A DNA stretch of 64,000 nt, from IMG/VR virus record IMGVR_UViG_3300045988_179062; one strand, written 5' to 3'. The translations under genes were made by a program, and so were the position numbers. Source of the DNA: a virus. Every line of letters starts with the position of its first letter. Position 1 is the first letter of the stretch. Shown here in pieces: positions 3,598-63,797 of this stretch. A model generated the notes under the pieces. That model was not told the DNA's origin and searched no databases. It saw only the letters and a program-made list of their open reading frames with translations.

Positions 3598-4332
3598 ATG
3601 CGCTACTTCACATCCGACCTGCATCTGGCACACCCGTTCGTCGCCGCGACGCGCGGTTTCTGGAAACCCGGGCAGAAGCCCGACCGCGACATCATCGAGG
3701 AGCCTGACGGCATCAACCAACTGCGACGCGAGCTGTCGGAATACCGATTCAACGAGATGGTCGACACGGAGGCCCATGACAGGCTCATCATCAGACGCAT
3801 CAACGCCGTGTGCGGTAAGAACGACGACCTCTACATCGCGGGCGACCTGTCCGCCGGCGGCCACAAGAGCCTCCGCCGCGCCCTGTACCTGCTCGACGGC
3901 CTGACCGTACCTCATTCGCGCATCCACCTGATACTGGGAAACCACGACGGCTTCCACATCCGAAACACCAACGCGTACGACTTCGCGTCCGTCTGCATCG
4001 GCTCCATATCGGACAACCTGTTCCTGACGCTTGCGAACGGCATGCCCGCCATCATCTCGCATACGCCACGCAAGACGTACATCGAACGGGGAGTCGAGCT
4101 GAAGGACGCCGCATCGAACTCGCTGGACAAGACATTGCTGAAATATGCGACCGACGTGCCGGACAATATCGTCCATCTCTACGGGCACACCCACGGGAAA
4201 TCGCCCGACGAGTTCCATGACGGGACGAGCATCAACATCGGACTCGACGCGTGGCGCCTTCGCCCGGTATCCGAGCGTCAAATCATCGAGACACTTGCGC
4301 AGATGCAGGCGACCGACTGCACGCAGACCTGA
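3598..4332 (+). CDS. calcineurin-like metallophosphoesterase
   Basis: Metallophosphatase signature blocks are present: 'SDLHLAHP', 'GDLS', 'GNHD' and 'GHTHG'. RBS GAAAGGAGG is upstream. Confidence 0.75.
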   Translation: MRYFTSDLHLAHPFVAATRGFWKPGQKPDRDIIEEPDGINQLRRELSEYRFNEMVDTEAHDRLIIRRINAVCGKNDDLYIAGDLSAGGHKSLRRALYLLDGLTVPHSRIHLILGNHDGFHIRNTNAYDFASVCIGSISDNLFLTLANGMPAIISHTPRKTYIERGVELKDAASNSLDKTLLKYATDVPDNIVHLYGHTHGKSPDEFHDGTSINIGLDAWRLRPVSERQIIETLAQMQATDCTQT

Positions 4333-4803
4333 TTGAGACGATAATGCGCCTCACGGCGCGAGCATGCGTGCACGGACCACATCCGGCCTTCCGAAAAGCG
4401 CCTGACGGCGCCGGAAGCGCTATTGAATGTGGTTCCGAAAACATAGAAAACGCCTCGTGGGAAAACCTGCGGGGCGTTTGCTTTCGCAAACAAAAGCCAC
4501 GCCGTGGCTTCGAGAACGATAGTAGAATCCATGGGTGAGATACCTTGCGGGTGCAAACGTAAGAATATTCGAATCCATGCAGAACTCCAGCAAGAGTTGC
4601 ACCTCTTGCGGTCTTACTCTCAGACGGATGACCTCGAAAATCATCGACAGTCGGGGTCCGGGTTGCCAAAAGGGCAGTCGCGGACGGAGTAAGACCTATT
4701 TTTTTTCAGGCACGCACACCATGACGCCAAAAGGCGTCCGACAGGTGACGTGCTGACGGGGTTCATGACAAGCATTACCCCACGTCAGACGCCTATTTTC
4801 ACT

Positions 4804-4842
4804 TGAAAATGAGTAGAAAAAATGAGATAATAATGTATACAC
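4804..4842 (+). promoter_or_regulatory. sigma70-like promoter (TTGAAA-17-GATAAT) with an adjacent TGTATACA palindrome upstream of nrdD
   Basis: TTGAAA lies at 4804-4809, a 17-nt spacer follows, and GATAAT lies at 4827-4832. The 8-bp perfect palindrome TGTATACA at 4835-4842 is a possible operator. Confidence 0.5.
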
Positions 4843-4860
4843 ATAACAGGAAAGGAGGCA

Positions 4861-5031
4861 ATGTCAACTATGGTGAAACGAACCATTACTCATGATGAAC
4901 TTGCTGCTCTGTGTGAGGCCCGCGATACGCTCTGCGGTTATTGCGAAGCCGATGAATGCGAGAAGTGCATCGTCACCAACCTAATTGACGATGCATACAA
5001 TGAACTGGAAGATGACGAATCATCTGATTAG
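4861..5031 (+). CDS. small Cys-rich (zinc-ribbon-like) protein, 56 aa, missed by the >=60-aa ORF track
   Basis: ATG at 4861 is preceded by GGAAAGGAGG. The translation is MSTMVKRTITHDELAALCEARDTLCGYCEADECEKCIVTNLIDDAYNELEDDESSD. It stops 15 nt before nrdD. Confidence 0.4.
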   Translation: MSTMVKRTITHDELAALCEARDTLCGYCEADECEKCIVTNLIDDAYNELEDDESSD

Positions 5032-5046
5032 AAAGGAGACTGGAAC

Positions 5047-7299
5047 ATGAACGTTATCAAACGCAACGGAACCGAAGTTCCGTTCAACCCCCAAAACATC
5101 ATCAACGCCGTGACCAAGGCCAACAATTCCATCGACGACGTATCCAAGCGAATGTCCGCGCTGCAGATTCGCGTCATAGAGGAGCAGGTCGAGAAAAAGC
5201 TCATGACCTTGGGTCGTGCGGCACATATCGAGGAGATTCAGGACCTCGTCATTCACGCCATCATGGCGCAACAAGCGTATGAGGTCGCCCAACACTACAC
5301 CGAGTACCGTTACAAGAAGGCACTCATCCGCAAGAGCAATTCCACCGATGACGCGATTCTCGCCCTCGTCGATTACGAGAACGAGGACATGAAACAGGAG
5401 AACTCCAACAAGAACCCGCAGATTGCATCGACACAGCGCGACTACATCGCCGGCATCGTGTCCCGTGACATCACATGGCGATTGCTTCTCCCTGAGGACA
5501 TCTCGGAGGCACAGAAGCAGGGCATCCTGCACTTCCACGATGCCGATTACTTCATGCAGCACATCCAGAACTGCAGCCTCATCAATCTGGACGACATGCT
5601 GCAGAACGGCACGGTCATCACCGACACGCTGATTGAGAGGCCCCAGAGTCTGGCATCTGCCGCCAACATCGCCACGCAGATTGTGGCGCAGGTCGCATCC
5701 AACCAATACGGCGGTCAGACCTTCACCCTGTCGCATCTGGCACCGTTCGTCGACGTGTCCCGCCGAAAGATTCGCTATCGCATCGAGGACGAGCTTGCCG
5801 AATGCGGCGCCTGCCTCAACGACAAGCAGATTGCGTCCATCGTCGAGGACCAGCTGGCCTATGAGATTCGCTCTGCCGTGCAGACCATCCAGTACCAGCT
5901 CATCACGCTGATGACGACCAACGGCCAGACGCCGTTCGTGAGCATGTGCATGTACCTCGACGAGGTTCCCGCCGGACGTACACGCGATGACCTTGCCCTG
6001 CTGATTCAAGAGGTCCTCAACCAGCGCATCCTTGGCGTAAAGAACAAGGAAGGCGCTTACGTCACGCCCGCGTTCCCGAAGCTCCTCTACGTCCTCGATG
6101 AGGACAACATTCACAAGGACAGCCCGTACTACTATCTGACGGAACTTGCCGCCAAGTGCACGGCGAAGCGCATGGTTCCCGACTACATCTCGGCCAAGGT
6201 CATGCGCGAGATGAAGAATGGCGATGTCTACCCGTGCATGGGCTGCCGCTCGTTCCTGACGCCGTGGCGCGTTCCTGATGAGAAAGGCAACATCGCCAAT
6301 GCCGGCAACTACGTTCCCGGACAGCACAAGTATTACGGCCGCTTCAATCAGGGCGTTGTGACCATCAACCTGCCTGACGTCGCGCTGTCGTCACATCAGG
6401 ACATGGATGATTTCTGGCGCATCTTCGACGAACGTCTGGAACTGTGCCATAAGGCACTGCGCATCCGCCATGAACGTCTGAAAGGAACCACATCGGACAT
6501 CGCGCCGATTCTGTACCAGCATGGAGCTATCGCCCGATTCAAGCCCGGTGAGGTCATCGACCCGTTGCTCTATGACGGATACTCCACGCTGAGCCTCGGC
6601 TACGCCGGCCTCTACGAGTGCGTGAAGTACATGACCGGCCAGTCCCATACGGAAGAGAACGGCAAGACGTTCGCTCTGCAGGTCATGCAGCACCTCAACG
6701 ACAAGTGCAACGAATGGAAGGCAGCCGAGAACATCGACTACTCCCTGTACGGAACGCCTATCGAGTCGACCACGTACACGTTCGCCCGCAAGCTGCAGGA
6801 GCGCTTCGGCATCATCAAGGACGTGACCGACCACGAATACATCACCAACAGCTATCACGTGAACGTGCGCGAGGACATCGACGCGTTCGAGAAGCTGCGC
6901 TTGGAAGGTGAGTTCCAGAAGCTGTCCCCGGGCGGTGCCGTCTCTTACGTCGAGGCGCCGAACATGGAGAACAACATCCCCGCCGTGCTCAAGATTGTCC
7001 GCTGCATCTACGACAGCATCCTGTATGCGGAGATTAACATCAAGAGCGACCACTGCCAGAAGTGCGGCTACGACGGCGAGGCCAAAATCGTCGATGACGA
7101 GAACGGCAAGCATATCTGGCAATGCCCGAACTGCGGCAACACCGACCAGCGCTATCTCAACGTGGCGCGCCGCACTTGCGGCTATATCGGGACCCAGTTC
7201 TGGAACCAAGGCCGCACGGAGGAGATTCGCGACCGCGTACTCCACGTATCGCTTCCCGAGTTCGACGACGCCGACGCCGCCGGCAATCGACCGCGATAG
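5047..7299 (+). CDS. nrdD: anaerobic ribonucleoside-triphosphate reductase (class III), large subunit
   Basis: An N-terminal ATP-cone ('VIKRNGTEVPF') is present. The C-terminal zinc ribbon is 'CQKCGY...CPNCG'. The glycyl-radical motif is 'RTCGYIG'. The length is typical for NrdD. Confidence 0.9.
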   Translation: MNVIKRNGTEVPFNPQNIINAVTKANNSIDDVSKRMSALQIRVIEEQVEKKLMTLGRAAHIEEIQDLVIHAIMAQQAYEVAQHYTEYRYKKALIRKSNSTDDAILALVDYENEDMKQENSNKNPQIASTQRDYIAGIVSRDITWRLLLPEDISEAQKQGILHFHDADYFMQHIQNCSLINLDDMLQNGTVITDTLIERPQSLASAANIATQIVAQVASNQYGGQTFTLSHLAPFVDVSRRKIRYRIEDELAECGACLNDKQIASIVEDQLAYEIRSAVQTIQYQLITLMTTNGQTPFVSMCMYLDEVPAGRTRDDLALLIQEVLNQRILGVKNKEGAYVTPAFPKLLYVLDEDNIHKDSPYYYLTELAAKCTAKRMVPDYISAKVMREMKNGDVYPCMGCRSFLTPWRVPDEKGNIANAGNYVPGQHKYYGRFNQGVVTINLPDVALSSHQDMDDFWRIFDERLELCHKALRIRHERLKGTTSDIAPILYQHGAIARFKPGEVIDPLLYDGYSTLSLGYAGLYECVKYMTGQSHTEENGKTFALQVMQHLNDKCNEWKAAENIDYSLYGTPIESTTYTFARKLQERFGIIKDVTDHEYITNSYHVNVREDIDAFEKLRLEGEFQKLSPGGAVSYVEAPNMENNIPAVLKIVRCIYDSILYAEINIKSDHCQKCGYDGEAKIVDDENGKHIWQCPNCGNTDQRYLNVARRTCGYIGTQFWNQGRTEEIRDRVLHVSLPEFDDADAAGNRPR

Positions 7300-49115: not shown

Positions 49116-52100
49116 TTAGTCTTCGCCAAGGCCGCCATGACCGTTGTCCGACGGACTCGCCACGTTGTTGTTCGGCAAGCGACGAGGACCGACCGACACC
49201 GTACGCTTCGGACCGACCTTACGGTCATGACCGGACTCCACGGTATCCGTCTTCGTGAACGCGCGCATCGTCTTCGACGCATCCGCGCCCTCGACGCCAG
49301 CCTCGCGCTCTTCGAGCACATGCTCATTGTACTTCACCGAACGCGGTGCGAACTGGCTGTTGCACTCGCCACGGAAGAGGTTCTCTCCGTCACGGCACAT
49401 GCCGACCAGCATCTCGAAATTGCCGCCATACGCCAGCTTATCGAGCGGAGCCGCCATATCGACGTCTTCGGACTCGATATTGACGATATGCCCCGTCTTA
49501 TCGGACAAGGCGTCTGCGACCTGCTCGACGTAATCGGCGTTAAACGCCACGTTCAAGCCATCGCCTGCGGAATACAGGGTCTTGAAGCTCTTGACCCACG
49601 CGTCACGCTCGGCGGGGATAATCTCGCCGTTCTCATCCTTGGCGGCACGCCACTGACCGTTATCGTCCTTGGCGACATCGGCACCGCGCCACAGGTCGCG
49701 TGCGGGACCCATCAGAAGCTCATACTTGCGACGGGCCTCCTCGGCATTGTGCTTCGCCTGCAGAAGCGACTGAGTAACCGGCATGGTCAGCTCCAGCACT
49801 GCCTTCTGGCAGGTGTTGCGCATCGCGGACACGCCACGCTGCGAGTAGGAGCCGGCGATGCCCGTACCGAAGGACTTGACGGCACACGCCGTCATGACCT
49901 CCTGATTGTCCGCACGAGTCGCACCGGTATGTTCGCCCATCGTAGCGCCGGTGAAATCCATGTTCTGCGCGTTCGGCGCATCCATGCCACCCCAGCGCAT
50001 GTAATTCAACAGGTTCGCCGGCTTACCCTTTGCCCCCGTCTTGATACATGCCTCGTTGATGGACTCCAGATGCGACTCAGGGCTGTCGTAGCGGATAGCC
50101 GCACGACCGCACTGACCGGAGAAGACCTCATGGTACAGACCGGACAGAGCCTCGACCGTCTCCTTACGGGCCTCGGTAATCTCCGCCTTCGTCATGTTGC
50201 CGGCCAGATAGTCCGCCTCATTGGAGTTCACCGTCTTAGCGATGCTGTCGAAACGCTCCTTGAAGTGCGAATCCGGGCTGTTGGCAAACGCCACCTTGAC
50301 ATCCAGCGACTGCTGCATGAACAGCTCGAACGGCTTCTCAAGGTCGTCGCTCTTGACACCGTAGTCCAAAAGGTTCGCCTGCACGGAGAAGTTCTCCATC
50401 GCCTCGCGACGCGCCGCCGGAGTCATCAGATTAACCACGGCCACGGTATCGCCGTCGAAGTCACCATCGAAGGACTTATCCATGACAGGGTTGATGGCGA
50501 CACCCGTCAGGCTGTCATCAATCTTGGCGCGCATATAACGCATGCCACCGTCACGCAGGATAGGGTCACGCCAAATCAAAACGTAATCGTCATCCTTGAC
50601 GCCGATGGAATCCGCCATCGCGCGACCGACCGCCACTTGGTCGATATCCAGACGCGGGTCGGCGTTCCAGATGGCCGTCGCAGAGTTCGGCATCTTGTGC
50701 GCCATGACCTCGTCACGGAACACATTGTGCTTGCCCGTAAAGGCACGCTGCACCACATCGCCCGTGATACGGTCGAAGCTCGCCTGAGCCGTCGTCTGGC
50801 AGCGCTCCATCTGCGCACGCAGCGCCTCCTGCGTCTTGTCGTCCAGACCCGGCTTGCGGAGCTGTTCCTGACAAGCGCGGTACATGTTGGCCTGATTGAA
50901 GACCTCGATGTACTGATGCGTGTAATCGTGCACGCTGGACGTACCGTCAACGAACGTCTGACCGGAACGCAAGTACGAACTCATGACCGGCAGACCCCAC
51001 GTGACGTTATCGGTCTGGCGCTGACCGGCTTCCTGACGACGATGCACCGTGGTCGGACGGACATACACGCCATCCTTGCGGGTATAGCCCTTACGCTCCC
51101 ACTCCTGCTTCGTGTACACCACGTCGGTCTTGCCGTCGTTCATCGGGGCGATGGCCTCGCCCGTCGGATACTTCAGCTCGAACGGAAGCTCCATGACGCC
51201 ACCGGACTTGGCAATCAGCTCAGCGAAGTCACTGTCCATCGACTTGACGTCAAGCGACGGACGACCGTCCTTCGTCACACCCGGTGTACGATACTTCAGC
51301 TCCGGCATCTCGATGACGCGACGGACCTCGCCCTCGTGAGGCTGATAGCCCACACGGAACTGACCCGTCTCGCTGATGTCCAGACCGCACGTGATAAGCT
51401 GCTCACGGATGTTCGACAGCACCGAGCTGTTATTACCGAAGCACTCACGCATGATAGCCGGCGAACCCTTGGCGTTCGCAGCCCATGCCGCCTGTGCGGA
51501 GAACTTACGTCCGCCCTCCTCATCATAGACATGGGTCTTCGCATCTGCCGACTTGTCGGTCACGATGATGCGCATGGAACCCATGGCGCCCTTGATGACC
51601 GTGCCATCCGGCGCCTTCAAATCCTGCGGATTCTCCATCAACTCGCGCGCCGTACCGCCGTTAAAGCGGGACACGGCCGGGAACGGAGCCATGACCATAT
51701 CCAAATCAGGGTTGGCACGCAGCCACTTCACCTGCTCCAGAATGCCCTTGTCCTTGGCTTCCTCGTCCGACATGTTCGGGTCCATCACATAGACGACGCC
51801 CTTGTTGCCGTACGGGTCGGTGACCTTGTCACCGTTCACCATCGGACGAAGATGACCGTCACGGGTACGAATCTTGTACTCCTCGGCCAGACGCTTCGTG
51901 ATGACCACTTGGTCATCCATCGTCCAACCGCCAAAGGTCATCTGCGCCACATTGACCGGACGGGTCACGGCGCTTGCCTGCATCAGGTTCGACACCGTCA
52001 TGTTCTGACGGTCAAACGGGTTGAACTCCATATAACGGGCCAGCGGATGGTTCATAATGGCGCAACGGGCGTTCTTGTCCGACGACGGAGTGATACGTCC

Positions 52101-54758
52101 GTCCGCCTCCACATGAGCGCCGGAAACCAGATAACGCAGCGTACCCTGATTCGTGCTGGTCGCCGTCGTTGCCACCGGGTCGAAATACCCGTCGGACTCC
52201 TCGGTCAGCACAGCCATGTTGCGACCGCCCGTCAACACGAAAGCATCGCCCGTGTTGTCGTTCGCCATGTCGCGACCATAGGAACGAGCCGTGTAATCGG
52301 CATGGATGGTCGACCCGTCACGGATGGCGTTCGGATAACGAACGCGCTGCCCCTCGGTCTCGATGATGGCCCACAGCACATCATCCTCCATGCCCTGCTC
52401 GCGGAACTGCTCAACGAAATCGTAATCGTGACGCTCGTCATAGAGATGACGATACGTGTCGTTCACGCTGGTCGGAGCGCCATAGACACCGTCGCGGTTC
52501 ATCGACAGGAAATCCTGACGAATCTGGTAACGAATGCTCTCGCGCATCGCCTGCTCGTAACCGCGCAGGCGCGTACGCTCCTCGACCGTCGACGGATGAC
52601 CCGGCGTCTGCGCCAGCACATGCGCCTCGTAGCCCGGAACGAATGCATAGTTCTCGATGCCCGTGAAATTGGTGTACACCACGCCATGCTCATCCGGCTC
52701 GAAGAACTGACCAATCTCGCCCTCGACCTGCTGCAGAGGGTTCTTGCCGGTCGTATACGCCGACGTCGCAATCTGACCCTTGTAATGCACGATGCCGTTG
52801 CCGTCGATACGGATGTCCTCATCCTTGAAATCGACGCCGTTGGCTTCCAGCGAATCGTGAATCTCCTGATACATGCTGCGCATGAACGGAGACTTCACGT
52901 CCTTCATCGCACGGGCAGACGCATAATCGAACTTGACCAGCTTACTCTTCATCGCCTGCGTATAGAAATCGTCGCCCTTCAGCTCGTCGGGCTTGATATC
53001 CAGCATACGCATCGCCTTGACGAGGTCATCGTTGTTACGGTAAATGCCGTAAGCCGACGTCTGGAACGCCGACACGCCAACCGGGTTGAAACGCTGACCA
53101 TTCTCGTCCGGCGTGTAATCGCCGATACGGTATTCCACCGACGACGAAGCATGGGCGCGAACCATATCCTCAGGCGACATATCCGACGGATAGACCAAAT
53201 CGGACAGCTCGTTACGATACAACGTGCTGGCCACCGCATCATCGGTCTCCAGCTCGCCGACCTCGGAGATACGCTCCTCGAACTCCTCGGCCTGACGACC
53301 CGGACGCATCAGGGTCGACTTGTTGCCAAGCAGGACATCGTAATAGCCCTGCTGAATCACGGCGATGTCGGGATTGCCCGACAGCTCCGACGCGAAATCC
53401 TCGTCATGACCATGCTCGGCAACATGCTGGATGATACGCTCCGCGTCCAGCTCGGTAGCGTAATTCTCACGCGCCGTACGAACCGCCTCGCGCAGATACT
53501 CATCCGCATCCGCCTGACTGACCATGGTGGTCGTCGCAGCGGAACGCCCGCTCACATCCACGTTGATGTAGAGCTGGTTGTTATAACGGTCGCCTTCCTT
53601 GCCCGTATGGGCGTTACGGTGGGGCTTGCCGATAGTGACATGGGAACCACGGGAGTTATGGTACGTGCCGTAGACCGTCTTGCGCTGGTTGCGCTCGATA
53701 CGGGTATACGTGCCGAACTTGCCGACCGGTTCGTCGGTACCCGGCTTCGTCATCGGCTCGCCGAGACCGTACTTCACCATCATCAGCGTCTCATCCACCG
53801 TAGGCTCCGGCGCATCACTGATGCTGGTGGACATGGTCGTCTTCAACAGCATGAACATGCCGTTGTCATACACACGACCAATCATGCGGGCATTGTCCGG
53901 CGTATCCATCACACGGATGCTCACGCGCGTGCCGTCCACCGTCGCCTGCAGCTGTCCCGGACGCATGTCGGGACGAATGCTGTAATCGCGTCCCTCTCGG
54001 TCCAGCTCCTCCATGATGGCAACGGCCTTATCCATGGAGCGGCGGTGAGTCTGCATCTGCTCCGGCGTCATCTTCGACAAGTCAAAGCCGCGCTCAACCC
54101 ACGACGAGCACTTCGCATAGTCCTCAGCGGACATAAAGCGCTTCAGACGGGTCATCCCCAACAGGTCCGCCTTGCACGTCAGCGAGCGACCACGGTCGCT
54201 GCCACGCCACACGGCGTCCTTGCCGCGCATGGACAGATTGCCCGCATACGGTGCCGCAAACCCGCCACGCGTCGTCGCGAGCGCCTCGGCGGAAGGCACC
54301 TTGCTATCCATAGCGACACCGCCAAGACGAGTGCCGTTGTCCATAACGGCATCGTTCATGGCAAACCGAGGGTCATACGGCGAAATCGGCATATAATGCC
54401 CCTCGCTCGTCACCTCGGACTCCTTACCAGTCTCCAGACCGACCAGCGACTTATAGTCGGCGAACTGGTGATTGAACAAACGACGACCTGCATCTCCGTC
54501 CGCATACGGGGCATGCCCCATGCGCTCGGAAAGAACCGCATTCGTCGCTGCGATGAAGTCTGGAATCCTCAGAGTCTCCATCGACTTTCCTTCGGACGCC
54601 AATCGCTGACCCAAACGAGTGCGGAACATACGACCCTCGGACGCCATGATGTAATCAGGGCGACTCTCAGTGACCTGCGACTCGTTATAGTCGCGAATCA
54701 CGTCGTAGAACGCATACTCGTAAAGGTAACGAGTCTTGTCCTTAGCAGTCAGTTTCAT
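49116..54758 (-). CDS. giant single-chain multisubunit-type RNA polymerase-like protein (fused beta-like and beta-prime-like double-psi beta-barrels)
   Basis: The beta-DPBB signature 'MVNGDKVTDPYGNKGVV...PDLDMVMAPFPAVSRFNGG' is encoded at 51795-51842. Compare RpoB 'GDKMAGRHGNKGV...DIVLNPLGVPSRMNIGQ'. The beta-prime-DPBB signature 'WRDPILRDGGMRYM...INPVMDKSFDGDFDGDTVAVVNLMTPAARREA' includes DFDGD at ~50447-50475. Compare RpoC 'NRAPTLHRLGIQAF...[23 protein letters not shown]'. The start is taken at ATG 54758 (AAGGA 4 nt upstream). The track ORF extends to a GTG at 54923 with an Arg/Ser-rich, non-protein-like leader. Confidence 0.75.
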   Translation of the reverse strand: MKLTAKDKTRYLYEYAFYDVIRDYNESQVTESRPDYIMASEGRMFRTRLGQRLASEGKSMETLRIPDFIAATNAVLSERMGHAPYADGDAGRRLFNHQFADYKSLVGLETGKESEVTSEGHYMPISPYDPRFAMNDAVMDNGTRLGGVAMDSKVPSAEALATTRGGFAAPYAGNLSMRGKDAVWRGSDRGRSLTCKADLLGMTRLKRFMSAEDYAKCSSWVERGFDLSKMTPEQMQTHRRSMDKAVAIMEELDREGRDYSIRPDMRPGQLQATVDGTRVSIRVMDTPDNARMIGRVYDNGMFMLLKTTMSTSISDAPEPTVDETLMMVKYGLGEPMTKPGTDEPVGKFGTYTRIERNQRKTVYGTYHNSRGSHVTIGKPHRNAHTGKEGDRYNNQLYINVDVSGRSAATTTMVSQADADEYLREAVRTARENYATELDAERIIQHVAEHGHDEDFASELSGNPDIAVIQQGYYDVLLGNKSTLMRPGRQAEEFEERISEVGELETDDAVASTLYRNELSDLVYPSDMSPEDMVRAHASSSVEYRIGDYTPDENGQRFNPVGVSAFQTSAYGIYRNNDDLVKAMRMLDIKPDELKGDDFYTQAMKSKLVKFDYASARAMKDVKSPFMRSMYQEIHDSLEANGVDFKDEDIRIDGNGIVHYKGQIATSAYTTGKNPLQQVEGEIGQFFEPDEHGVVYTNFTGIENYAFVPGYEAHVLAQTPGHPSTVEERTRLRGYEQAMRESIRYQIRQDFLSMNRDGVYGAPTSVNDTYRHLYDERHDYDFVEQFREQGMEDDVLWAIIETEGQRVRYPNAIRDGSTIHADYTARSYGRDMANDNTGDAFVLTGGRNMAVLTEESDGYFDPVATTATSTNQGTLRYLVSGAHVEADGRITPSSDKNARCAIMNHPLARYMEFNPFDRQNMTVSNLMQASAVTRPVNVAQMTFGGWTMDDQVVITKRLAEEYKIRTRDGHLRPMVNGDKVTDPYGNKGVVYVMDPNMSDEEAKDKGILEQVKWLRANPDLDMVMAPFPAVSRFNGGTARELMENPQDLKAPDGTVIKGAMGSMRIIVTDKSADAKTHVYDEEGGRKFSAQAAWAANAKGSPAIMRECFGNNSSVLSNIREQLITCGLDISETGQFRVGYQPHEGEVRRVIEMPELKYRTPGVTKDGRPSLDVKSMDSDFAELIAKSGGVMELPFELKYPTGEAIAPMNDGKTDVVYTKQEWERKGYTRKDGVYVRPTTVHRRQEAGQRQTDNVTWGLPVMSSYLRSGQTFVDGTSSVHDYTHQYIEVFNQANMYRACQEQLRKPGLDDKTQEALRAQMERCQTTAQASFDRITGDVVQRAFTGKHNVFRDEVMAHKMPNSATAIWNADPRLDIDQVAVGRAMADSIGVKDDDYVLIWRDPILRDGGMRYMRAKIDDSLTGVAINPVMDKSFDGDFDGDTVAVVNLMTPAARREAMENFSVQANLLDYGVKSDDLEKPFELFMQQSLDVKVAFANSPDSHFKERFDSIAKTVNSNEADYLAGNMTKAEITEARKETVEALSGLYHEVFSGQCGRAAIRYDSPESHLESINEACIKTGAKGKPANLLNYMRWGGMDAPNAQNMDFTGATMGEHTGATRADNQEVMTACAVKSFGTGIAGSYSQRGVSAMRNTCQKAVLELTMPVTQSLLQAKHNAEEARRKYELLMGPARDLWRGADVAKDDNGQWRAAKDENGEIIPAERDAWVKSFKTLYSAGDGLNVAFNADYVEQVADALSDKTGHIVNIESEDVDMAAPLDKLAYGGNFEMLVGMCRDGENLFRGECNSQFAPRSVKYNEHVLEEREAGVEGADASKTMRAFTKTDTVESGHDRKVGPKRTVSVGPRRLPNNNVASPSDNGHGGLGED

Positions 54759-55069
54759 CGTATCCTTCACATCCTTTCCGATGTCGTGAACGTAAACACA
54801 AAAGAAGCCGGAACCCAACGACATCTCGTCGGAATCCCGGCTTCTGCAACGCATTGGCACAGACCTTCGCGACGACTCGCTCTTATTGCCCGACGGCAAC
54901 CTTCCGTGGTCACATTCATGCACCTATAATCTTAGAAAAGTATACCATATACGAACAGAAATTTCAAGACTTCAGAGCAACATAACCGCAGGTAAAATAA
55001 GAAGAACACCTTCCCTGCTGCGTACAGAATAAATACGACAAGGCGCGACGCCTTGCGATGGGAATCCTG

Positions 55070-55217
55070 AGAATCGTAGCTCAGTGGTAGAGCTTCGGGC
55101 GTTCCGTCCATGAGAGGGTTCGAGTCCCTTTGTTCTTGCGGGAAGAGTGGGTAGCGGGCGACAGGCCGAAAGGCGACGCACCGGGTACAGCGCGGGTTCG
55201 AATCCCGTCGGTTCTCT
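55070..55217 (+). tRNA. tRNA-like locus: one D-arm and two T-arm/3'-acceptor segments (tRNA with an inserted or duplicated 3' portion, or a tRNA plus pseudo-tRNA)
   Basis: A canonical D-arm, GCTCAGTGGTAGAGC, lies at 55079-55093 and is preceded by TA and the acceptor 5' arm AGAATCG at 55070-55076. T-arms lie at 55114-55130 (GAGGG-TTCGAGT-CCCTT) and 55192-55208 (GCGGG-TTCGAAT-CCCGT). The 3' strand CGGTTCT at 55209-55215 pairs with AGAATCG (one G.U). No clean anticodon arm could be folded by eye. Confidence 0.4.
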
Positions 55218-56093: not shown

Positions 56094-56464
56094 TATGAAA
56101 CCACCACCTTCTCCTTCGCACGGCGAAGCATCGCCGGCAGATAATACAGATAGTTCGACAGCACCGTGACATGGAGCTGTACCTCCACCGGCACATTCCA
56201 ATAGGCATCCGACAAGCACAGGCTGCGACGCAGACTCATGCCCGCCTGCTTCGCCGTGTCCACGGCATCGCTGTCAGACCATGAGCGATTGCCGCAATCA
56301 TCGACACGGGCGAAACTTTTCTCCGTCAGTATCGCCTCGCGCTCGATGTATCGCTTCACAATGCCCACCGATACGGCAATCACCGACGGATGGGGATTGC
56401 CGATATGCTCCAGAACACTGTCGACGAAACAGATGTCACGCCAGTCCTCAATTACCTTACCCAT
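56093..56464 (-). CDS. hypothetical protein
   Basis: RBS GAAAGGGG is present. It lies 5 nt after the primase gene. Confidence 0.4.
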   Translation of the reverse strand: MGKVIEDWRDICFVDSVLEHIGNPHPSVIAVSVGIVKRYIEREAILTEKSFARVDDCGNRSWSDSDAVDTAKQAGMSLRRSLCLSDAYWNVPVEVQLHVTVLSNYLYYLPAMLRRAKEKVVVS

Positions 56465-56469
56465 ATAAA

Positions 56470-58308
56470 TTACGCCCCTTTCTTCTCAACGGTGCCGGCA
56501 TCTTCAACCATATCCCCGACAACCGTGCGACGCACATGCACCGCATTATCCGTGCGCAACAGTCCTCGCGCACGGCTCGGCACATCCGGGGAACACAGCT
56601 GGTCGAGATTCGACCCGCGAAAACCCGATTTCATCAAACTCTTGACGTCATACTCCAGAATCAGCGGCTCGGGATAGTCCATACGTCCCGACGTGCTGAC
56701 CTGATTATCCGAACACGTCCAGTCGGGATACTCTTCGAGCACCTGACGGAAGTCCTTCAGGAAACCCTTCTTGCTCTGAATCTTTCCCGACGGCATATAC
56801 GTGCGATACCAGCCCTCGTAGAACCGATACAGCCAGTCCCATGGAATCAAGTCCCACGAGAAGCGAGGCAACGTATCCTCGGTGAACTGGCGCACCGGGT
56901 CGTTGAACGACTTATAGTCTTCCAACAGGTCAACGCACGCTGTCGGCTCGTCAAGCTCGTAATAATCAGTCTCGGCAAGCACGTGATACAACACGTATTC
57001 AAGCACGTCCTGACGATACAGATAATCGTCCTTGATGTACTTGCGCTCGCGACCCTGAAATCGCTTGTCGAACGGAATCACCAGCAGGCGACGGTACATC
57101 GACTCCGACTTGTCCTTGAGCTTGGGCATCTCGTTGACACACTGCACCATGAACCCGCGAAACAGAAGCGACCTCGGGTCCTTGAACTTGCGGTTTATCT
57201 GGAACGGGTCATGGGTGATGACGCACTTGAGCGCGGCCGCATCGTCCACGAACGTACCGGTGTCGTTCTCATCGGTGATGATGGCCGACACACGGGTCAG
57301 AGGCTCCAGCATGAACTGCTCGGAGAAGTTCTTCAACGGGATGGACTCCCACGCGCCCGGACCGCACAGATTGCGCATCAACACGCACAGCGTTCCCTTG
57401 CCGTTGTTACCCAGCGTCGAATAGAACCATGCGCTCTTGTTCCAGCTCACGTTCGGACGGATGACCGCCCCGATAATCTCCCACAACAGCCTGACGATTT
57501 CCGGGTCGTCGGAAAGCTCGTTCATCCACGAGACGACGTCCCAGTCCGTGTTGTCATCGCTGTTATGTATCACGGGATTTTTCGCGCCGTCGACGAAGTT
57601 GACGTGGCTCTTGCTGGTAAAGACAAAATCCGGGTCGAACGCCATCAGAATCTTGTTGCCGTAATCGTAGATGCCGTTGTTCACGGCGACCAAATCGCGG
57701 TCGCGACAACGCTCCACACGGGGGCAAATCGCACGAAGCACGGCAACCGTCTCGGCGACGTCCTTGATGCTCATGGCTTTGTTGTAGCGCCGAATCAGAC
57801 GCTCGATACCGTCGAAGCTGGTATCGTAGCAACCCATGTTGTCGCCCTCGGTCTGATAGATGCCGATGTCATAGTTGCCCTCGTCGCGAACGCTGGCCCA
57901 GCAGACGCACACGGCATGGTGCAACTTGTACAGAAGCACCGCAATCTGCATCGGATGCAGACCGCTGATGCGCTTATAGCGCTCCACGCCCTGCTTCTGG
58001 TCAGGATAGGCATCCCTCTGCTTCGCGCCGGCAGGTGCGTTCGGGTCGCACTTGCCCAAGTTGTACGCGTCAATGCAACGGTTCGTCAAGGTGAGAAGCT
58101 CGTATTTGAGTGTATCGCGAGCAGGAGGGTTCTCCGTGTCGATGCCCTGCAGATAGAACAGCGTCGCATACTCCAAAAGGTCATCATAAGCAATGACCTG
58201 CTCAGAACAGTATGATACAATGTCAGCAGCGCAATCGTCAGGTAAGCGCATATCTTCCTCCGTCGCTCCGATGTCAACTGCATCGGGGCGATTTTCTTGT
58301 AAACTCAC
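56470..58308 (-). CDS. phage/plasmid primase-helicase, P4/D5 family (C-terminal SF3 NTPase domain)
   Basis: The D5_N/Primase_C-type region has Walker A 'STLGNNGKGTL' and Walker B 'AIITDENDTG'. 'FKDPRSLLFRGFMVQCVNEMP' is present. The N-terminal half is a primase-type domain. Confidence 0.7.
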   Translation of the reverse strand: MSLQENRPDAVDIGATEEDMRLPDDCAADIVSYCSEQVIAYDDLLEYATLFYLQGIDTENPPARDTLKYELLTLTNRCIDAYNLGKCDPNAPAGAKQRDAYPDQKQGVERYKRISGLHPMQIAVLLYKLHHAVCVCWASVRDEGNYDIGIYQTEGDNMGCYDTSFDGIERLIRRYNKAMSIKDVAETVAVLRAICPRVERCRDRDLVAVNNGIYDYGNKILMAFDPDFVFTSKSHVNFVDGAKNPVIHNSDDNTDWDVVSWMNELSDDPEIVRLLWEIIGAVIRPNVSWNKSAWFYSTLGNNGKGTLCVLMRNLCGPGAWESIPLKNFSEQFMLEPLTRVSAIITDENDTGTFVDDAAALKCVITHDPFQINRKFKDPRSLLFRGFMVQCVNEMPKLKDKSESMYRRLLVIPFDKRFQGRERKYIKDDYLYRQDVLEYVLYHVLAETDYYELDEPTACVDLLEDYKSFNDPVRQFTEDTLPRFSWDLIPWDWLYRFYEGWYRTYMPSGKIQSKKGFLKDFRQVLEEYPDWTCSDNQVSTSGRMDYPEPLILEYDVKSLMKSGFRGSNLDQLCSPDVPSRARGLLRTDNAVHVRRTVVGDMVEDAGTVEKKGA

Positions 58309-58310
58309 GC

Positions 58311-58628
58311 TTATCCCTCCTCTCTATAAATATCGTGCTCCAGCATGAAGCGTTCCAGACTCATGCGGTGCACCTTCTTGTGCCGACTGTTCCCTCCGGG
58401 TGCGATAAAAGGACAGTCGGGCTGATTCATCAACTCATTCAATCGGTTGATACCGATGCCGAACAGCTCGGACGCTTCCCGCTTCGTCAGAAACGGCTTG
58501 TACGACAGCGCTTGGATGTACGACGCATAATCTTCCATGGACATCTCAACCCCGCCAATCACATGGCGAGTCGTTGAGACGGCCGGCGTCTCACTCTGAC
58601 TCATCACAGGCTTGCTCATGATAATCAC
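58311..58628 (-). CDS. helix-turn-helix DNA-binding protein (excisionase/AlpA-like)
   Basis: The HTH is 'LTKREASELFGIGINRLNELM'. It sits immediately upstream of the primase and next to the iteron array. Confidence 0.5.
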   Translation of the reverse strand: MIIMSKPVMSQSETPAVSTTRHVIGGVEMSMEDYASYIQALSYKPFLTKREASELFGIGINRLNELMNQPDCPFIAPGGNSRHKKVHRMSLERFMLEHDIYREEG

Positions 58629-58753
58629 CCCTCCCTTTCTTCTTGCCTATATCACAGATATACACAGTATACCACAGTAACACATAAAAAGTCAATACCT
58701 CGCGCATCTATGCCTCGACAGCAAGGCATTCATCCCCACCCGGCGACCGTCTG

Positions 58754-59195
58754 ACTCACTTCGTTCTTACTCACTTACTCACTTGGGAAAAACAAGTGAG
58801 ACCCGCCGAAAACGCCGATTATCACGGGGAAGTACGCCAAAAAGAAGGCGCTTGTCTCACTTTCTTACTCACTTAATCTCACTAAAAAATTGGCAAGTGA
58901 GACGGTGTTTTCCCCCATTTTTCAGGGCTTTTAGGGTCGTTACTCACTTTACTCACATTTTTCCAAACCCTTATATATAGAAAGAAGTACAAAATTACTC
59001 GCCATAAATAGATTGAAAAATAGTGAGTAAAGTGAGTAAGAAAATAGCAAATTGCCCATGTTTACAGGGAAAACGGACAATTTCTTTAGCGTACTAAAGT
59101 GAGTAAGGATTTCGAAAAACGCCCATAAATGAGGCTTTCGCTTACTCACTAAAATTTGCTCAAGTGAGTAACAAGTGAGTAAGAACTGAGTAAGC
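58754..59195. repeat. iteron array: at least 14 copies of the 9-mer AGTGAGTAA/TTACTCACT in both orientations, with an AT-rich tract; putative replication origin
   Basis: Copies lie at ~58767, 58775, 58865, 58939, 58948, 59022, 59031, 59098, 59144, 59164, 59175 and 59185. Related GTCTCAC/GTGAGAC inverted repeats lie at 58854 and 58897. The AT-rich segment 59260-59300 lies between the array and the co-directional HTH-primase operon. Confidence 0.6.
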
Positions 59196-59491
59196 AACAC
59201 GGCATCACTAAAAATTTCCGCACTCGCACTCATTTTCCGCCGTACTCTATTGCATATCGAAAACAATCGTTATATAATAAAAGATTATTTTCAAAAACCT
59301 GCGTGATGACGCGACTAATACCGCGGGCACGCTCCGACCGGTCGTCTCACTTTGCTCACTTCCAACTGAGAGGCGCGACAGAGGTGCGACAAACACCACC
59401 CTCCCCTTTCTCGTACGTCATCCACTCAACCGACGGGGCAATCCCAAATGCAACCGAAATCGCTTTCGTGCGACACGCCCGAATAAAAATG

Positions 59492-59523
59492 ACGCCGTAG
59501 AATGCTCTCTACGGCGTTTTTCT
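59492..59523 (+). terminator. Rho-independent terminator
   Basis: A 10-bp stem, ACGCCGTAGA / TCTACGGCGT, is followed by TTTTTCT. Confidence 0.55.
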
Positions 59524-59604
59524 GACATTACATGGGTTCTTTATCGTCTGACCTATTAAAACGTCTTAAAACGGCTCTCAGAGCCTCATACGGTGTTTCC
59601 CTAT

Positions 59605-59655
59605 ACGCACGAAAAAGACCCGCCGAAGTTTTGCCTAATCGCAAAACCTCGAACG
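59605..59655 (-). terminator. terminator downstream of the T4CP gene (minus strand)
   Basis: A nested hairpin, AAGACCCG...CGGGTCTT with inner GTTTTGC/GCAAAAC, is followed on the minus strand by a T-run. Confidence 0.45.
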
Positions 59656-59690
59656 GGTCTTTTGCCATATCGAGACCGATTATCGTCCCA

Positions 59691-62600
59691 TTAGTCTCTC
59701 AGCAGACGAGCCATCTCGGTCTCGAAACGTCCGTTCGCAAACTTCCAACTCGATTGTGAAATCAGGAAGTCGAGGAACGCATCCGTTACCGTAAACGAAC
59801 CCATGCGCTCCACATCGTGAGCGTTGATATCCTGCTCCGAGTAAACGTTCGATGTCGGGTCATGAATCGCCTCGTTGATGCTGTTCAGCTCTTCGCTCTT
59901 AACGCCCATGACAATGTACGGAACGCCCGTCGCCGAATACAGCGAGCCGTTGCGCATCTCGAAGTTGATGCGGTCCTGCTCGAAATCACCCTTCACCTCA
60001 AGGAACGCGTTCGTAATCGTCTGGTCCAGACTGTGATTGTAACGACCGTTGTTCTTGAAATCGGCCGGCGACAAAGCGCCATCGGCATAGCATGCCGTAT
60101 GCATCGCATCGTATTCGGCCGCCTTCTCGGCGTTCACACGGGCCTGCTCCTCGTTCGGAACGGCACGCGCGGCAAACGATTCCTGCATCGCCATGTAATC
60201 ATCGTCAATCGGCGGAGAGTACATGTCGTCATCATCCGAACCCTTCAGCGTCTCGTTCAGAGAGGTGTTGATGACCTCCATGATTTCATCGGCGTACAGG
60301 TCGGGGTCGAGCTGTTCAATCTGATGCTCCGTGTAATCATACGTCGACTGGTATGCCTCACGGGCCATGTCGACAGCCAACGCCTGCGCGATGCGCTTGT
60401 CGAGCATCTTGTCGAAATCAGGCACGTTCTTGCGCACATCGAAGTCCTTCGCCGAGGACAGCGTCGGGATGGTCTGGAACGTGTACTTGTGACCCGGCTG
60501 CGTGATGGTCTCAGAGAACAGGCGCCAAGACATCGGCAGAATGGTCTCGTTGCGGTTCCAAATCGGCGAGTCACCGGCACGGAAGATGATGGAGTTACGC
60601 TCCGAAATAAACGCCATGTCGTTGTACTTGATAACCGGCTCTTCGACCGTCGTCATCGTGTACGACACCTTGCCCTCGTTACGCATCCAGACCTTCTCGG
60701 TATCACGCGTGATGGTCTTGGAGTTCGTGTAGGCACGATGCTGCGTACCGCTCATCTTCTGCAACGTATCCAACATGCTATCGTCAGTCGACTTCAAAAA
60801 GACGATGTTGGACGTGTTGCCCTGCACGATTTTATCGACGCTATCGCCGTAAACATCGCGCAACTGCTGAAGGGTCTGCAGAATCAGCGTGAACTGCTGC
60901 TCCTGACCGAGTCCGATGGAAAGCATCGTCTCAAAGCCGGAGATACCGTGACCCTCGGACTGCAGGTTACCCAACTCATCGAGCATGAAACGCGTCTTGT
61001 AGAGTGGCTTCTGATTGTCCTTCGTCATGTAGGACTGGTCGAAATTGAGGTCAACCAGCTGCTTGATGAGAATCAGAATCAGCTTCGCATACGACATCAG
61101 GTGCGGAGGCGTGACAAGGAACACCATCTTCTGCTTCTCGCTGTAACGCTGCATGTACTGCGTGATGGCACGGGCCTTCACCGTCTCCTTATGCGGCGTC
61201 GTGGCGATGTCCTTCATCTTCTCCGTCTTGTACGTCACATACCCGCGCTTGAACTCCGTAGCGCCCGTCTTCGGATTCTTCACGGGACGAAGCTCGGTCA
61301 GGATGCCATCATGGACAATCTTGTTGCCCAGAATCGGGTCCTTAACGTACGTACGGCCGTCCAGCGACGTCTGATACGTCTTCACGAACTTGAAGTAGAA
61401 CGTGCGCATCAGCTGGAACGTCTGCGGGTTGCGAATCTCACAGCGCAGATACGCCGTGTCCTTCGGGAAGATTCCCTTGAAATAGAATCGCGACCAACCA
61501 GCCGTGTTGACCAAGTCCTCATGATAGAAGTCCTTGCCCAGCGATTCCTTGAACAACGGGTCGGAGAACGCCTGCCAGATGCACTGCATACCCTTGAGGT
61601 GGTACAGCGCGATGAAATCGGCGCTCATACGGAAACCAAGACGACGCGGGAACGACAGACCAGCCAAGTCCACGTTCTGCATCGGCGTACCGCTGGTCAG
61701 CGTACGGATGGTCGGGTCCGTGAAGAACGACATGGCCGTGATGGCGATACCGTAGACGGAAGCCATCATCTTCTCGGCGCCACCCATGGAACGCAGGGCG
61801 TCATCGGCGTTGCCCAAAAGCGTACGCATCTGGTTACGCGGCAGGAGCTTCGTCGCGTTGAAGTACAGCGTCAGCAGGTCAATCTCGGGCTTCTCTTCCC
61901 ACAGATACTTGGACTGCTTCTCCACACGGGACAGCTCAGCCTCATACTGCTCGTCATTCATCTCAGCGATACGGGCTGCTTCCTCTGTCGCCGGGGTACG
62001 GCCCTCCGCCATGGCGGCATTGGCTTCCTTGGCTTCCTTCGTGAACGCAACAGCCGGGTTCGGGAGCTTCTTGGACGTCAACGTGACGAACAGCTCATAG
62101 CAGTTGTACAGCGTGACGTGACCCCACAGATTGTCGAGCTTGGTCTCCAGCGTCTTCTCGTCCATGTGCGTGCGCTGGGCAATCAGACGCAGTTCCTTCT
62201 CCTCTTCGAGGTAATAGTCGATAAGACCGTACGCAGCACGCTTGAACGCGTTGTTAGCGGCGTTCGGCCACACCGGGTCGTCACCGCCATCGACCGGGAA
62301 GAACACCTCGGCGATGTTGTTGACATACATGGCAACCTTGGTGAAGTCACCCTCGCGGGCTGCCGTCGCGGCCATCATCAACGGGTTGTAAATGTCCGTA
62401 TTCATCGAGTTAATCAGGTTGAACTGCACGACCTGAAAACCGCGATACGTACCGGGCACATAGAACTTCTTCAACAGCTCGCCCTTCGGGTCGTTGATGA
62501 CCATGTTGTTATTGTTCTTCTCACGGGTCCACATGTCAATGGTCGGCTCGATGATGGTCTGACCCTTACCTGCACGCGTGATAGCCAAAACCATCGTGTT

Positions 62601-63797
62601 GACCGGGTCGATGTCCACCAGATACGCACCGCCGGGACGCTGCGTCTCGTAATACGGAATCTCCCAGTCACCGTTAATCATGTCAGCGACCGTATCGTAA
62701 CCCTTCAGCTTGTCACGGTTGGCATTCTTCGGGTTGTACGGAATCTTGGTCGCATCGTAATACTTACGCAGCGACTTATCCTTCGGCAGACCGGACGCGT
62801 CGAACAGTGCCTCCATGAACTCCGTGTTGAACATCGGCACCGTCTTCGTCATCGGCTTGTCGTTATCGTCCAGAAGGATTTCACCCTTCAAATATTCGAC
62901 GTCGCCATCCTCATCGAGGATGTCCTTGTCGGCTCGCACCGAGATGGGAACCTTCTTGATGCCCTTGTTCTGCAGAGCCACATGCGAAATCATACTGGAC
63001 ACCTGCACCGAACAATGGGCACCTGCATCCGGGAACCAGTCGAACTTGCGCATAATCTCTTCCGGCAGGGCGATATGCTGGTCGTTCTGGTATTGGTTGA
63101 TATCCGTCGTGTCGTTCATCAGGTTCTGCGCGGCGAGATTGCGCATCATCAGCGGATACATGATGGCAAACACCAGAAGCGCACCAATCAGAGCACCTAC
63201 GAAGTCAGGCCAGTTGTACAGCGCCGGCGCAATCCAATACGTGAACGACTTCTGCTCTTTAGCAAGCTCCTCTGCCGCCTTCTGCTCAGCAATCTCCCTC
63301 TGTCCCTCTTCAGTGGACATCTTCTGCTCGTACTCGGCCTTGGAGACCGTGTACCACTCAGGCTCGGGGACATCCTCCATGTTGTCGTAGACCGGGCCAA
63401 ATGGCTTGCCGTTCGCATCCTTGGCCTGATACTTCGTACGCATGCCCGTCATCGGGTCGATATCGTCGATATCTTCGATGTAGTTGTACGGGTCATCAGG
63501 GTCGTACGTACCGACTTTAGAGTCACTGCTCCCGTCAGAGGTGACGATGGCGCTCGCGCCGTCGCCGCTCATTGCTGAGATACCGTTCATGCCCCAACGG
63601 ATGCCACCGACGACCATGTACATCAGAATACCGGCCAGAATCGCCACAATGACAGTAGCGATGATACGTGACAGCGAAGACTGCTTCTCTTCGATTTTGG
63701 AACGCTCAAGCTGTTGGTCGTCATACACGTCACGATACTTGGTCGTATCCTGAGGCTGGCGGTCCTTGATGATGTCCCAATTCGTCTTCTTCGCCAT
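59691..63797 (-). CDS. type IV secretion coupling protein (VirD4/TraG/TraD family) with a ~700-aa C-terminal extension
   Basis: Two N-terminal TM helices are predicted. The VirD4-type P-loop is 'VLAITRAGKGQTII' (compare 'APTRSGKGVG'), followed by 'DPKGELLKKF' (compare 'DIKGEN'). The Walker B is 'TRFMLDELGNL'. Also present are 'EQQFTLILQTLQQLRDVYGD' and 'SNIVFLKSTDDSMLDTLQKMSGT'. Confidence 0.7.
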   Translation of the reverse strand: MAKKTNWDIIKDRQPQDTTKYRDVYDDQQLERSKIEEKQSSLSRIIATVIVAILAGILMYMVVGGIRWGMNGISAMSGDGASAIVTSDGSSDSKVGTYDPDDPYNYIEDIDDIDPMTGMRTKYQAKDANGKPFGPVYDNMEDVPEPEWYTVSKAEYEQKMSTEEGQREIAEQKAAEELAKEQKSFTYWIAPALYNWPDFVGALIGALLVFAIMYPLMMRNLAAQNLMNDTTDINQYQNDQHIALPEEIMRKFDWFPDAGAHCSVQVSSMISHVALQNKGIKKVPISVRADKDILDEDGDVEYLKGEILLDDNDKPMTKTVPMFNTEFMEALFDASGLPKDKSLRKYYDATKIPYNPKNANRDKLKGYDTVADMINGDWEIPYYETQRPGGAYLVDIDPVNTMVLAITRAGKGQTIIEPTIDMWTREKNNNNMVINDPKGELLKKFYVPGTYRGFQVVQFNLINSMNTDIYNPLMMAATAAREGDFTKVAMYVNNIAEVFFPVDGGDDPVWPNAANNAFKRAAYGLIDYYLEEEKELRLIAQRTHMDEKTLETKLDNLWGHVTLYNCYELFVTLTSKKLPNPAVAFTKEAKEANAAMAEGRTPATEEAARIAEMNDEQYEAELSRVEKQSKYLWEEKPEIDLLTLYFNATKLLPRNQMRTLLGNADDALRSMGGAEKMMASVYGIAITAMSFFTDPTIRTLTSGTPMQNVDLAGLSFPRRLGFRMSADFIALYHLKGMQCIWQAFSDPLFKESLGKDFYHEDLVNTAGWSRFYFKGIFPKDTAYLRCEIRNPQTFQLMRTFYFKFVKTYQTSLDGRTYVKDPILGNKIVHDGILTELRPVKNPKTGATEFKRGYVTYKTEKMKDIATTPHKETVKARAITQYMQRYSEKQKMVFLVTPPHLMSYAKLILILIKQLVDLNFDQSYMTKDNQKPLYKTRFMLDELGNLQSEGHGISGFETMLSIGLGQEQQFTLILQTLQQLRDVYGDSVDKIVQGNTSNIVFLKSTDDSMLDTLQKMSGTQHRAYTNSKTITRDTEKVWMRNEGKVSYTMTTVEEPVIKYNDMAFISERNSIIFRAGDSPIWNRNETILPMSWRLFSETITQPGHKYTFQTIPTLSSAKDFDVRKNVPDFDKMLDKRIAQALAVDMAREAYQSTYDYTEHQIEQLDPDLYADEIMEVINTSLNETLKGSDDDDMYSPPIDDDYMAMQESFAARAVPNEEQARVNAEKAAEYDAMHTACYADGALSPADFKNNGRYNHSLDQTITNAFLEVKGDFEQDRINFEMRNGSLYSATGVPYIVMGVKSEELNSINEAIHDPTSNVYSEQDINAHDVERMGSFTVTDAFLDFLISQSSWKFANGRFETEMARLLRD

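Follow-up and report, generated by a model that had tools for sequence, protein, structure and literature searches.

A candidate SaPI/PICI-type replication origin in an iteron array upstream of a P4/D5-family helicase gene of a human-gut element

The window analyzed here is a 64,000-nucleotide stretch of the IMG/VR virus record IMGVR_UViG_3300045988_179062. Towards its right end, an array of short repeats (iterons) lies between the gene of a coupling protein and an operon encoding a small HTH protein and a helicase called Rep. The array is located 440-880 bp upstream of the rep start, past the HTH gene, and small ORFs follow the rep stop. The loci used for comparison bear L numbers: L002-L005 were fetched from IMG/VR, L006 and L007 from assemblies, and L008-L087 from GTDB genomes, most of them of Collinsella and other Coriobacteriia, with some Clostridia. 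The features of the locus are the following.

49116-54923, minus strand: RNAP-like protein, 1935 aa (RNAP Rpb1 domain-2 match)
56470..58308, minus strand: Rep, 612 aa, SF3 initiator-helicase of the P4/D5 family (family and structure matches)
56470..56958, minus strand: Rep C-terminal domain, residues 451-612, proposed iteron-recognition domain (from co-variation)
56737-56772, minus strand: candidate recognition helix, Rep residues 513-524 (position taken from the model)
58311..58619, minus strand: small HTH protein of Tn916-Xis/HTH_17 type, 102-aa gene call (PF09035, E = 1e-7)
58666..58695, minus strand: predicted sigma-70-like HTH-rep promoter, TTGACT-18-TGnTATACT (prediction; conserved in L006)
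58752..59193, both strands: main iteron array, 17 copies of (A/T)GTGAG(TAA/AC) or one-mismatch variants
58775..58803, no strand: inverted-pair module TTACTCACT-N11-AGTGAGACC, 20 bp start to start, conserved in L006
58875-58904 and 59142-59171, no strand: similar inverted-pair modules, 21 bp start to start
58940..58957, minus strand: inner left doublet TTACTCACTTTACTCACA, facing the centre, with a counterpart in relatives whatever their motif
58958..59021, no strand: AT-rich centre, proposed melting site (stability scan, A+T content, family comparison)
59022..59039, plus strand: inner right doublet AGTGAGTAAAGTGAGTAA (motif positions)
59249..59277, plus strand: promoter-like TTGCAT-17-TATAAT, directed away from rep (sequence reading)
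59343..59360, minus strand: distal doublet AGTGAGCAAAGTGAGAC, ~150 bp beyond the main array
59492..59517, no strand: bidirectional hairpin/terminator separating the T4CP gene from the origin region (sequence, prediction)
59623-59652, no strand: second hairpin/terminator (sequence, prediction)
59691-63797, minus strand: VirD4/TraG-type coupling protein (T4CP), 1368 aa (family match)

Among the other products of the window are NrdD/NrdG, a dUTPase, ClpB-, UvrD-, RecD2-, MgsA- and SNF2-type proteins, HNH and MazF. Human-gut metagenome contigs of 71 and 91 kb carry the same genes, and a relative with 79% identity is located on a contig of 105 kb. Neither an integrase nor a relaxase was detected among the ORFs scanned, and no par genes adjoin the array. 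Two observations concern the region downstream of rep. The RNAP-like gene, a few genes away and kept in L001, L006 and L007, has its sole family match at residues 1442-1510, within which lies a DFDGDFDGD metal-site-like motif; its 1935-aa product may serve the element as a giant RNAP-like enzyme made of a single chain. At 55070-55216(+), an Rfam tRNA match of 40.7 bits, above the gathering score, keeps its acceptor, D and T arms intact; 67 nt are inserted in its anticodon region, its variable arm is long, and ARAGORN makes no call there. It could correspond to an interrupted or intron-containing tRNA or to a tRNA-like element.

The GC skew is negative across 1-64000, while the genes lie on the plus strand in 1-34 kb and on the minus strand in 34-64 kb. 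Since the skew keeps its sign where the coding strand flips, the strand asymmetry is independent of transcription direction; unidirectional replication and single-strand transfer are possible causes. The earlier note on this DNA, made from the sequence alone, had suggested looking for a skew switch at the array. None was found through 67.5 kb, that is, ~8 kb beyond the array. With no switch, bidirectional replication is unsupported as an explanation of the skew; for origin function, the result carries little weight and is uninformative.

The repeats themselves stand out clearly from the rest of the window. A motif search returned 11 exact matches to AGTGAGTAA in the 64 kb, ten of them within 58767-59182 and a stray one at 44006, when dinucleotide-preserving shuffles of the whole window contain 0.16 on average and 1 at most. 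Copies with one mismatch at 58752(-), 58949(-), 59185(+) and 59352(-) bring the array to 14, and GTGAGAC/GTGAGAT variants at 58795(+), 58853(-), 58875(-), 58896(+) and 59343(-) bring the total to 19 sites. Similarly, 17 of the 23 AGTGAG hexamers of the window fall in 58700-59400. The array is non-random and limited to one spot in the window, and its main part has an irregular start-to-start spacing of 8-73 nt. The earlier count of at least 14 copies of a 9-mer in both orientations was thus borne out (10 exact, for 0.16 expected, and the four one-mismatch copies), and the three tandem doublets and interleaved GTCTCAC/GTGAGAC repeats were all found as the earlier note had them.

Two other readings of this DNA were discarded. 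The sequence TTACTCAC(A/T) could be taken for a DnaA box, but it is two mismatches off TTATNCACA, and the motif varies with Rep across relatives. A 105-aa ORF predicted by gene callers over the array, at 58949-59266(-), has codon-position GC values of 0.37/0.33/0.38, which carry no coding signal, and was judged spurious. An Rfam search of the region, as of the corresponding region of L009, returned sub-threshold miRNA, intron and sRNA matches only, which are explained by the palindromic nature of the array.

The orientation of the copies is ordered. All copies left of 58958 are on the minus strand, except two variant copies that form inverted pairs, and all copies right of 59021 are on the plus strand, with one exception. 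Between the two inward-facing doublets sits a 64-bp centre (58958-59021) of ~75% A+T, whose edges are kept across the family, with TTTTT..AACCCTTATATA on one side and TTGAAAAAT on the other. In a nearest-neighbour scan, no 60-mer of the 64 kb is less stable than 58971-59030, whose dG is -64.8 (mean -87.4, sd 5.0). Two iteron sets of opposite direction, with at least two copies per side, therefore flank an AT-rich region, and the outer copies keep this polarity. The arms also contain inverted pairs starting at 58775/58795, 58875/58896 and 59142/59163, at 20-21 bp start to start, and the same layout of pairs recurs with other motifs in L009 and L017. Beyond the main array, the distal doublet has a homolog in L006 (4853-4871) and is present in L196 as well.

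A second AT-rich tract, to the right of the array, had been proposed as the unwinding element, at 59260-59300. The segment 59260-59299 is indeed 82% A+T; in the stability scan of the window, though, 59242-59301 ranks fourth and the array centre first. The tract contains the promoter-like sequence TTGCAT-17-TATAAT, kept in the same-element variant L196 but absent from L006, which is 79% identical and has the same iterons. The unwinding role is thus not retained for this tract: the AT-rich element found family-wide is 58958-59021, and 59249-59277 is probably, from its sequence, a promoter located outside the origin core. This near-consensus promoter would read along 59249-59526(+), through the distal doublet and up to the bidirectional hairpin. 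Its product could be the protein of a 65-aa GTG ORF (59303-59500) or a non-coding RNA; the 243-nt stretch folds only modestly better than its shuffles (z = -2.1).

In the related loci, the 3-kb stretch preceding each rep gene was searched for arrays by k-mer scan. About 40 loci have an array of 7-14 motif copies in both orientations, mostly 0.6-1.2 kb upstream and further in some. These loci share a layout, namely opposed doublets around an AT-rich centre, and differ in the repeated sequence, of which there are ~20. The motif is AGTGAGTAA in the window and L006, GTGTGCA in L002, L003 and L005, TGGAACA in L008-14 and L057-60, GGCACAAC in L017 and L019, TGAGACA in L018, TGACACACT in L020-23 and L061, AGTGGAACA in L024 and L027, AGTGGGCA in L025, TGCTACA in L026 and TGGCACA in L053 and L062; other motifs are found in further loci. 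The edges of the centre are independent of the motif, with TTTTT..AACC.. on one side and TATATAAG..TTGAAAAA on the other. In many chromosomal loci, the array accompanies rep with no adjacent T4CP gene. The adjacency of array and operon is not obligatory, because L007, whose Rep is 73% identical, has no array beside its HTH-rep operon (region 3900-5720), where pilus/T2SSE-type genes are found instead. L007 shares the rep and RNAP-like gene neighborhood, and its origin must be elsewhere or differently organized.

Two peculiarities of the relatives deserve mention. A second array, TGACCA(C/G)ATG in both orientations with its own AT-rich centre, precedes the TGCACAC array by ~200 bp in L002 and L003 (4655-4860); it could serve as a further origin or be bound by another protein. 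In chromosomal relatives, a conserved leader of ~200 nt with an intrinsic terminator lies directly upstream of the HTH-rep operon (L002 5500-5766, L009 4500-4766, L017 4560-4709, and equivalents in L024 and L026). It is attenuator-like and unmatched in Rfam; in the window and L006 it is absent, and its place is taken by the promoter.

Broader collections were searched as well. With 56400-59700 as query, blastn against PLSDB and INPHARED matched the helicase core only, in two actinobacterial plasmids, and left the array unmatched. When viral and metagenome collections were scanned for the doublet AGTGAGYAAAGTGAGYAA, more than 130 stretches matched, nearly all of them chance occurrences or simple tandem repeats; the only relatives among them were L196, a variant of the same element whose Rep is 99% identical, and the array fragment L105 (88%). 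These two served for a direct comparison of iterons and spacers. Between the window and L105, 4 of 143 iteron positions have changed (2.8%), against 39 of 228 in the spacers (17.1%; Fisher p = 9e-6), and the centre drifts at a spacer-like rate yet remains AT-rich. In L006, likewise, the iterons, the centre edges and the HTH promoter are conserved, whereas the spacers and the 59249-59300 tract have diverged. These sequence comparisons support purifying selection on the iterons relative to the spacers.

The helicase gene of the operon had been annotated in the earlier note as a P4/D5 primase-helicase. The helicase part of this annotation stands. Rep matches DUF5906/D5_N/Pox_D5 and the P4-family helicase domain TIGR01613 (E = 1e-51), and a phmmer search of the PDB aligned its residues 138-527 with chain positions 371-749 of SaPI5 PriRep (7OLA, E = 3e-52), its sole solved-structure relative by sequence. 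The AlphaFold model of Rep (pLDDT 83.5) has as best Foldseek match 7ola_C, with E = 1e-29, a target-normalized TM of 0.74 and 30% identity; across the 7OLA chains, the target-normalized TM is 0.70-0.84, and where the C-terminal domain is built in the chain the alignment covers 427 of 431 residues. By sequence and model, Rep is a homolog of the self-loading initiator-helicase PriRep of SaPI5. The primase part was not recovered: matches begin at residues ~138-146, the first 137 residues, predicted to be helical in the model, are unmatched in Pfam, NCBIfam and PHROG, and no pri gene was identified next to rep. At the other end of the protein, the model places helices over residues 490-504 and 513-524, and strands over 530-538 and 579-585.

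The variety of motifs makes it possible to ask which protein reads them. The small HTH protein had been put forward as one possible binder of the 9-mer. One identical 92-aa HTH adjoins three array types, GGCACAAC in L017/19, TGAGACA in L018 and TGGAACA in L057-60, and so the HTH is excluded as the factor that sets repeat specificity. Conversely, TGACACACT arrays adjoin two unrelated HTH types (L020-22 versus L023). A separate set of repeats could be its target: CACAG occurs three times with exact 10-bp phasing at 58653-58677, with a degenerate fourth copy at 58683, overlapping the -10 of the HTH-rep promoter. These repeats, distinct from the iterons, are a plausible operator for an Xis-like HTH.

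Mosaic loci point to Rep instead. Identity between L017 and L057 is 95-97% in the flank, the leader, the HTH, the first 44 rep codons and the downstream genes, while their arrays cannot be aligned and their Rep bodies are 60% identical. L008 and L057 both have TGGAACA, and within ±5 kb Rep is the sole protein that they have in common besides a weak 37% match; the latter cannot set specificity because it is 97% identical between L017 and L057, whose motifs differ. L027 is a mosaic whose HTH and Rep N-terminus resemble those of L020 (85%), whereas its array and Rep C-terminal domain resemble those of L024 (90%, versus 53% with L020). In L017 and L018, the arrays align copy for copy, all copies having changed in concert from GGCACAAC to GTCTCAAC, and the Reps, which share 89% identity, differ in the C-terminal domain, helix 513-524 included.

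The same trend was quantified over 465 pairs from 31 dereplicated loci. Pairs with the same motif are told apart from those with different motifs by identity over residues 451-612 with an AUC of 0.99, also after regression on core identity, as compared with 0.66 for the Rep N-terminus; the p-values of the pairs are nominal and the pairwise statistics are inflated by shared ancestry. Among different-motif pairs, the most similar C-terminal domains are those with similar motifs. The window and L006, with the same motif, are 83% identical in the core, 72% in the C-terminal domain and 88% over residues 505-530; for the window against L018 or L002, whose motifs are different, the corresponding figures are 74-76%, 40-43% and 35-38%. 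As an exception, two loci with the core TGGCACA have C-terminal domains no more than ~38% identical in the most discriminating segment. Helix 513-524 reads KKxFLKDFRQ with AGTGAGTAA, RNxF with TGGAACA/TGGGCA and RKxLI with GTGTG(T)CA; this grouping by motif class, on a helix placed from the model, is suggestive only. Taken together, the sequence comparisons support a tie between iteron specificity and the C-terminal domain of Rep, which is predicted to bind the repeats.

On these grounds, the region 58752-59193 with the doublet 59343-59360 is quite probably the vegetative origin of the element, an origin of SaPI/PICI type that would be bound by Rep, melted at its centre and used for self-loading of the helicase. 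The earlier suggestion of a candidate origin served by a P4/D5-family helicase gains support from the ~40 related loci, the co-variation with Rep, the conservation of the iterons and the homology with SaPI5. We infer the steps of binding, melting, helicase loading and replication at the array as follows. The C-terminal, winged-helix-type domain of Rep (~451-612) would recognize the 9-bp iterons, and Rep oligomers would form on both iteron sets, which point in opposite directions. Rep would then melt the AT-rich centre (58958-59021) and load there, as proposed for SaPI/PICI Reps. Cooperative binding and/or control of copy number or of the promoter is probably contributed by the outer iterons and by the inverted pairs of 20-21 bp, and the small HTH would be a separate regulator or an excisionase-type factor rather than the reader of the origin. 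The element, found on contigs of ~91-105 kb, could carry another replicon beyond the window.

Other functions can be considered for the same repeats. The array could be bound by Rep as an incompatibility, handcuffing copy-control or partition-like site, the origin being elsewhere in the element. Such a site would account for the 19 copies, versus 6-12 in SaPI origins (PMC9371898), and for the outer inverted-pair modules and the distal doublet; the second, different array of L002-type relatives and the lack of a skew switch also fit with it. What the whole family conserves, on the contrary, is the origin-like core, a pair of facing doublets with the window's most easily melted DNA between them, and the array has no par genes next to it. 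In iteron replicons, moreover, control iterons normally accompany the origin set and do not replace it. A control site separate from the origin is therefore unlikely.

The proximity of the 3' end of the T4CP gene raises the question of an oriT, or of a loading site for a relaxosome or coupling protein. The gene of this 1368-aa protein ends at 59691, the order T4CP-array-HTH-rep is found in L006 too, and the skew has a single sign across the window. Across chromosomal loci, nevertheless, the array follows rep where no T4CP lies alongside, and it co-varies with the C-terminal domain of Rep; no relaxase appears among the ORFs scanned and no nic-like conserved sequence stands out, the iterons alone being conserved. 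We regard this possibility as very improbable. Scarcely credible, finally, is an operator field of the Xis/HTH protein, serving in autoregulation of HTH-rep or as an architectural site of the excision type. Xis-type proteins do bind arrays of short repeats, the HTH matches Tn916-Xis, and the predicted HTH-rep promoter is 60-500 bp downstream of the array. The association of one identical HTH with three iteron types, and of two HTH types with one iteron type, argues against it, and the three CACAG repeats over the promoter are a better operator candidate.

At least ~20 iteron types occur, many of them with a TGnnACA-like frame; all copies have changed in concert in one pair of loci. It is quite possible, and tentatively proposed here, that the module is one allele of a cassette-like system in elements of gut Coriobacteriia and Clostridia, in which the origin and the helicase C-terminal domain switch together and a SaPI-type replicon drives an element of ~90-105 kb. 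Such co-switching, if true, would presumably allow related elements to reside together without being incompatible, and would provide a natural read-out of the recognition code between winged helix and DNA. The comparative set, ~20 iteron types each matched to a C-terminal domain, near-isogenic swaps included, constitutes a dataset on DNA reading by the winged-helix domains of SaPI-type Reps. On the practical side, the locus offers a candidate origin and initiator for an uncultured gut element, probably from Collinsella-type hosts, which could be of use for Coriobacteriia shuttle vectors and for the prediction of incompatibility groups.

The architecture had been described in the earlier note as the classic one of theta/P4-type origins. 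As in the theta plasmids pPS10, R6K, RK2 and F, initiator repeats lie beside an AT-rich segment and the specificities of Rep and iteron are matched. In these plasmids, however, tandem iterons of 17-22 bp in the same orientation and at helical phasing are combined with an unwinding element at one end and with DnaA boxes, and the initiator is a Rep_3-type winged-helix protein that is not a helicase and recruits the host DnaB (PMC4980987). The repeats of the window are 9 bp long, occur in both orientations, are irregular and are symmetric about a centre; the initiator is itself a helicase, and no Rep_3-type protein is encoded next to the array. With the alpha protein of P4 and its ori/crr, the points in common are these: Rep matches the P4-family helicase domain (TIGR01613) and a Vis/AlpA-like HTH is nearby. 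In the P4 paradigm, a C-terminal DNA-binding domain reads the short repeats of the origin. Unlike alpha, Rep has no detected N-terminal primase domain, the helicase and C-terminal domains being present, and unlike in P4 no crr-like second site several kb away was seen, the sole stray copy being that at 44006.

The best counterpart is found in the replication modules of SaPIs and PICIs, such as SaPI1, SaPIbov1, SaPI5 and EcCICFT073, in which a self-loading SF3 helicase (Rep or Pri-Rep) is combined with an iteron origin. SaPI Reps are self-loading initiator-helicases whose C-terminal winged-helix domain recognizes short iterons, and the SaPI origin has six to twelve iterons and an AT-rich centre, with at least two iterons per side in opposite directions (PMC9371898); in PICI origins, the AT-rich region is said to lie "always" between two iteron sets (PMC6092414). 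The window differs in several respects. Its putative origin is 5' of the HTH-rep operon instead of immediately 3' of rep, its iterons are of 9 bp (a 6-bp core plus TAA) instead of 5-6 bp, its 19 sites are spread over ~600 bp with inverted-pair modules, and neither a primase domain nor an adjacent pri gene was detected in it. The contigs of ~90-105 kb, with T4CP, NrdDG and a giant RNAP-like gene, are not those of a ~15-kb phage satellite, and the element does not fit the phage-inducible satellites, which have int, packaging and interference genes in ~10-15 kb. The features in common are those of the replicon itself: an SF3 Rep closest to SaPI5 PriRep by sequence and by fold, opposed sets of short iterons around an AT-rich centre with at least two per side, a specificity tied to the C-terminal domain of Rep, and a small Xis/AlpA-type HTH gene just upstream of rep. 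The architecture is thus of the SaPI/PICI type instead of that of tandem-iteron theta plasmids. This origin design is not new, being already well known from the staphylococcal pathogenicity islands, and the current picture of how such origins work is left unchanged.
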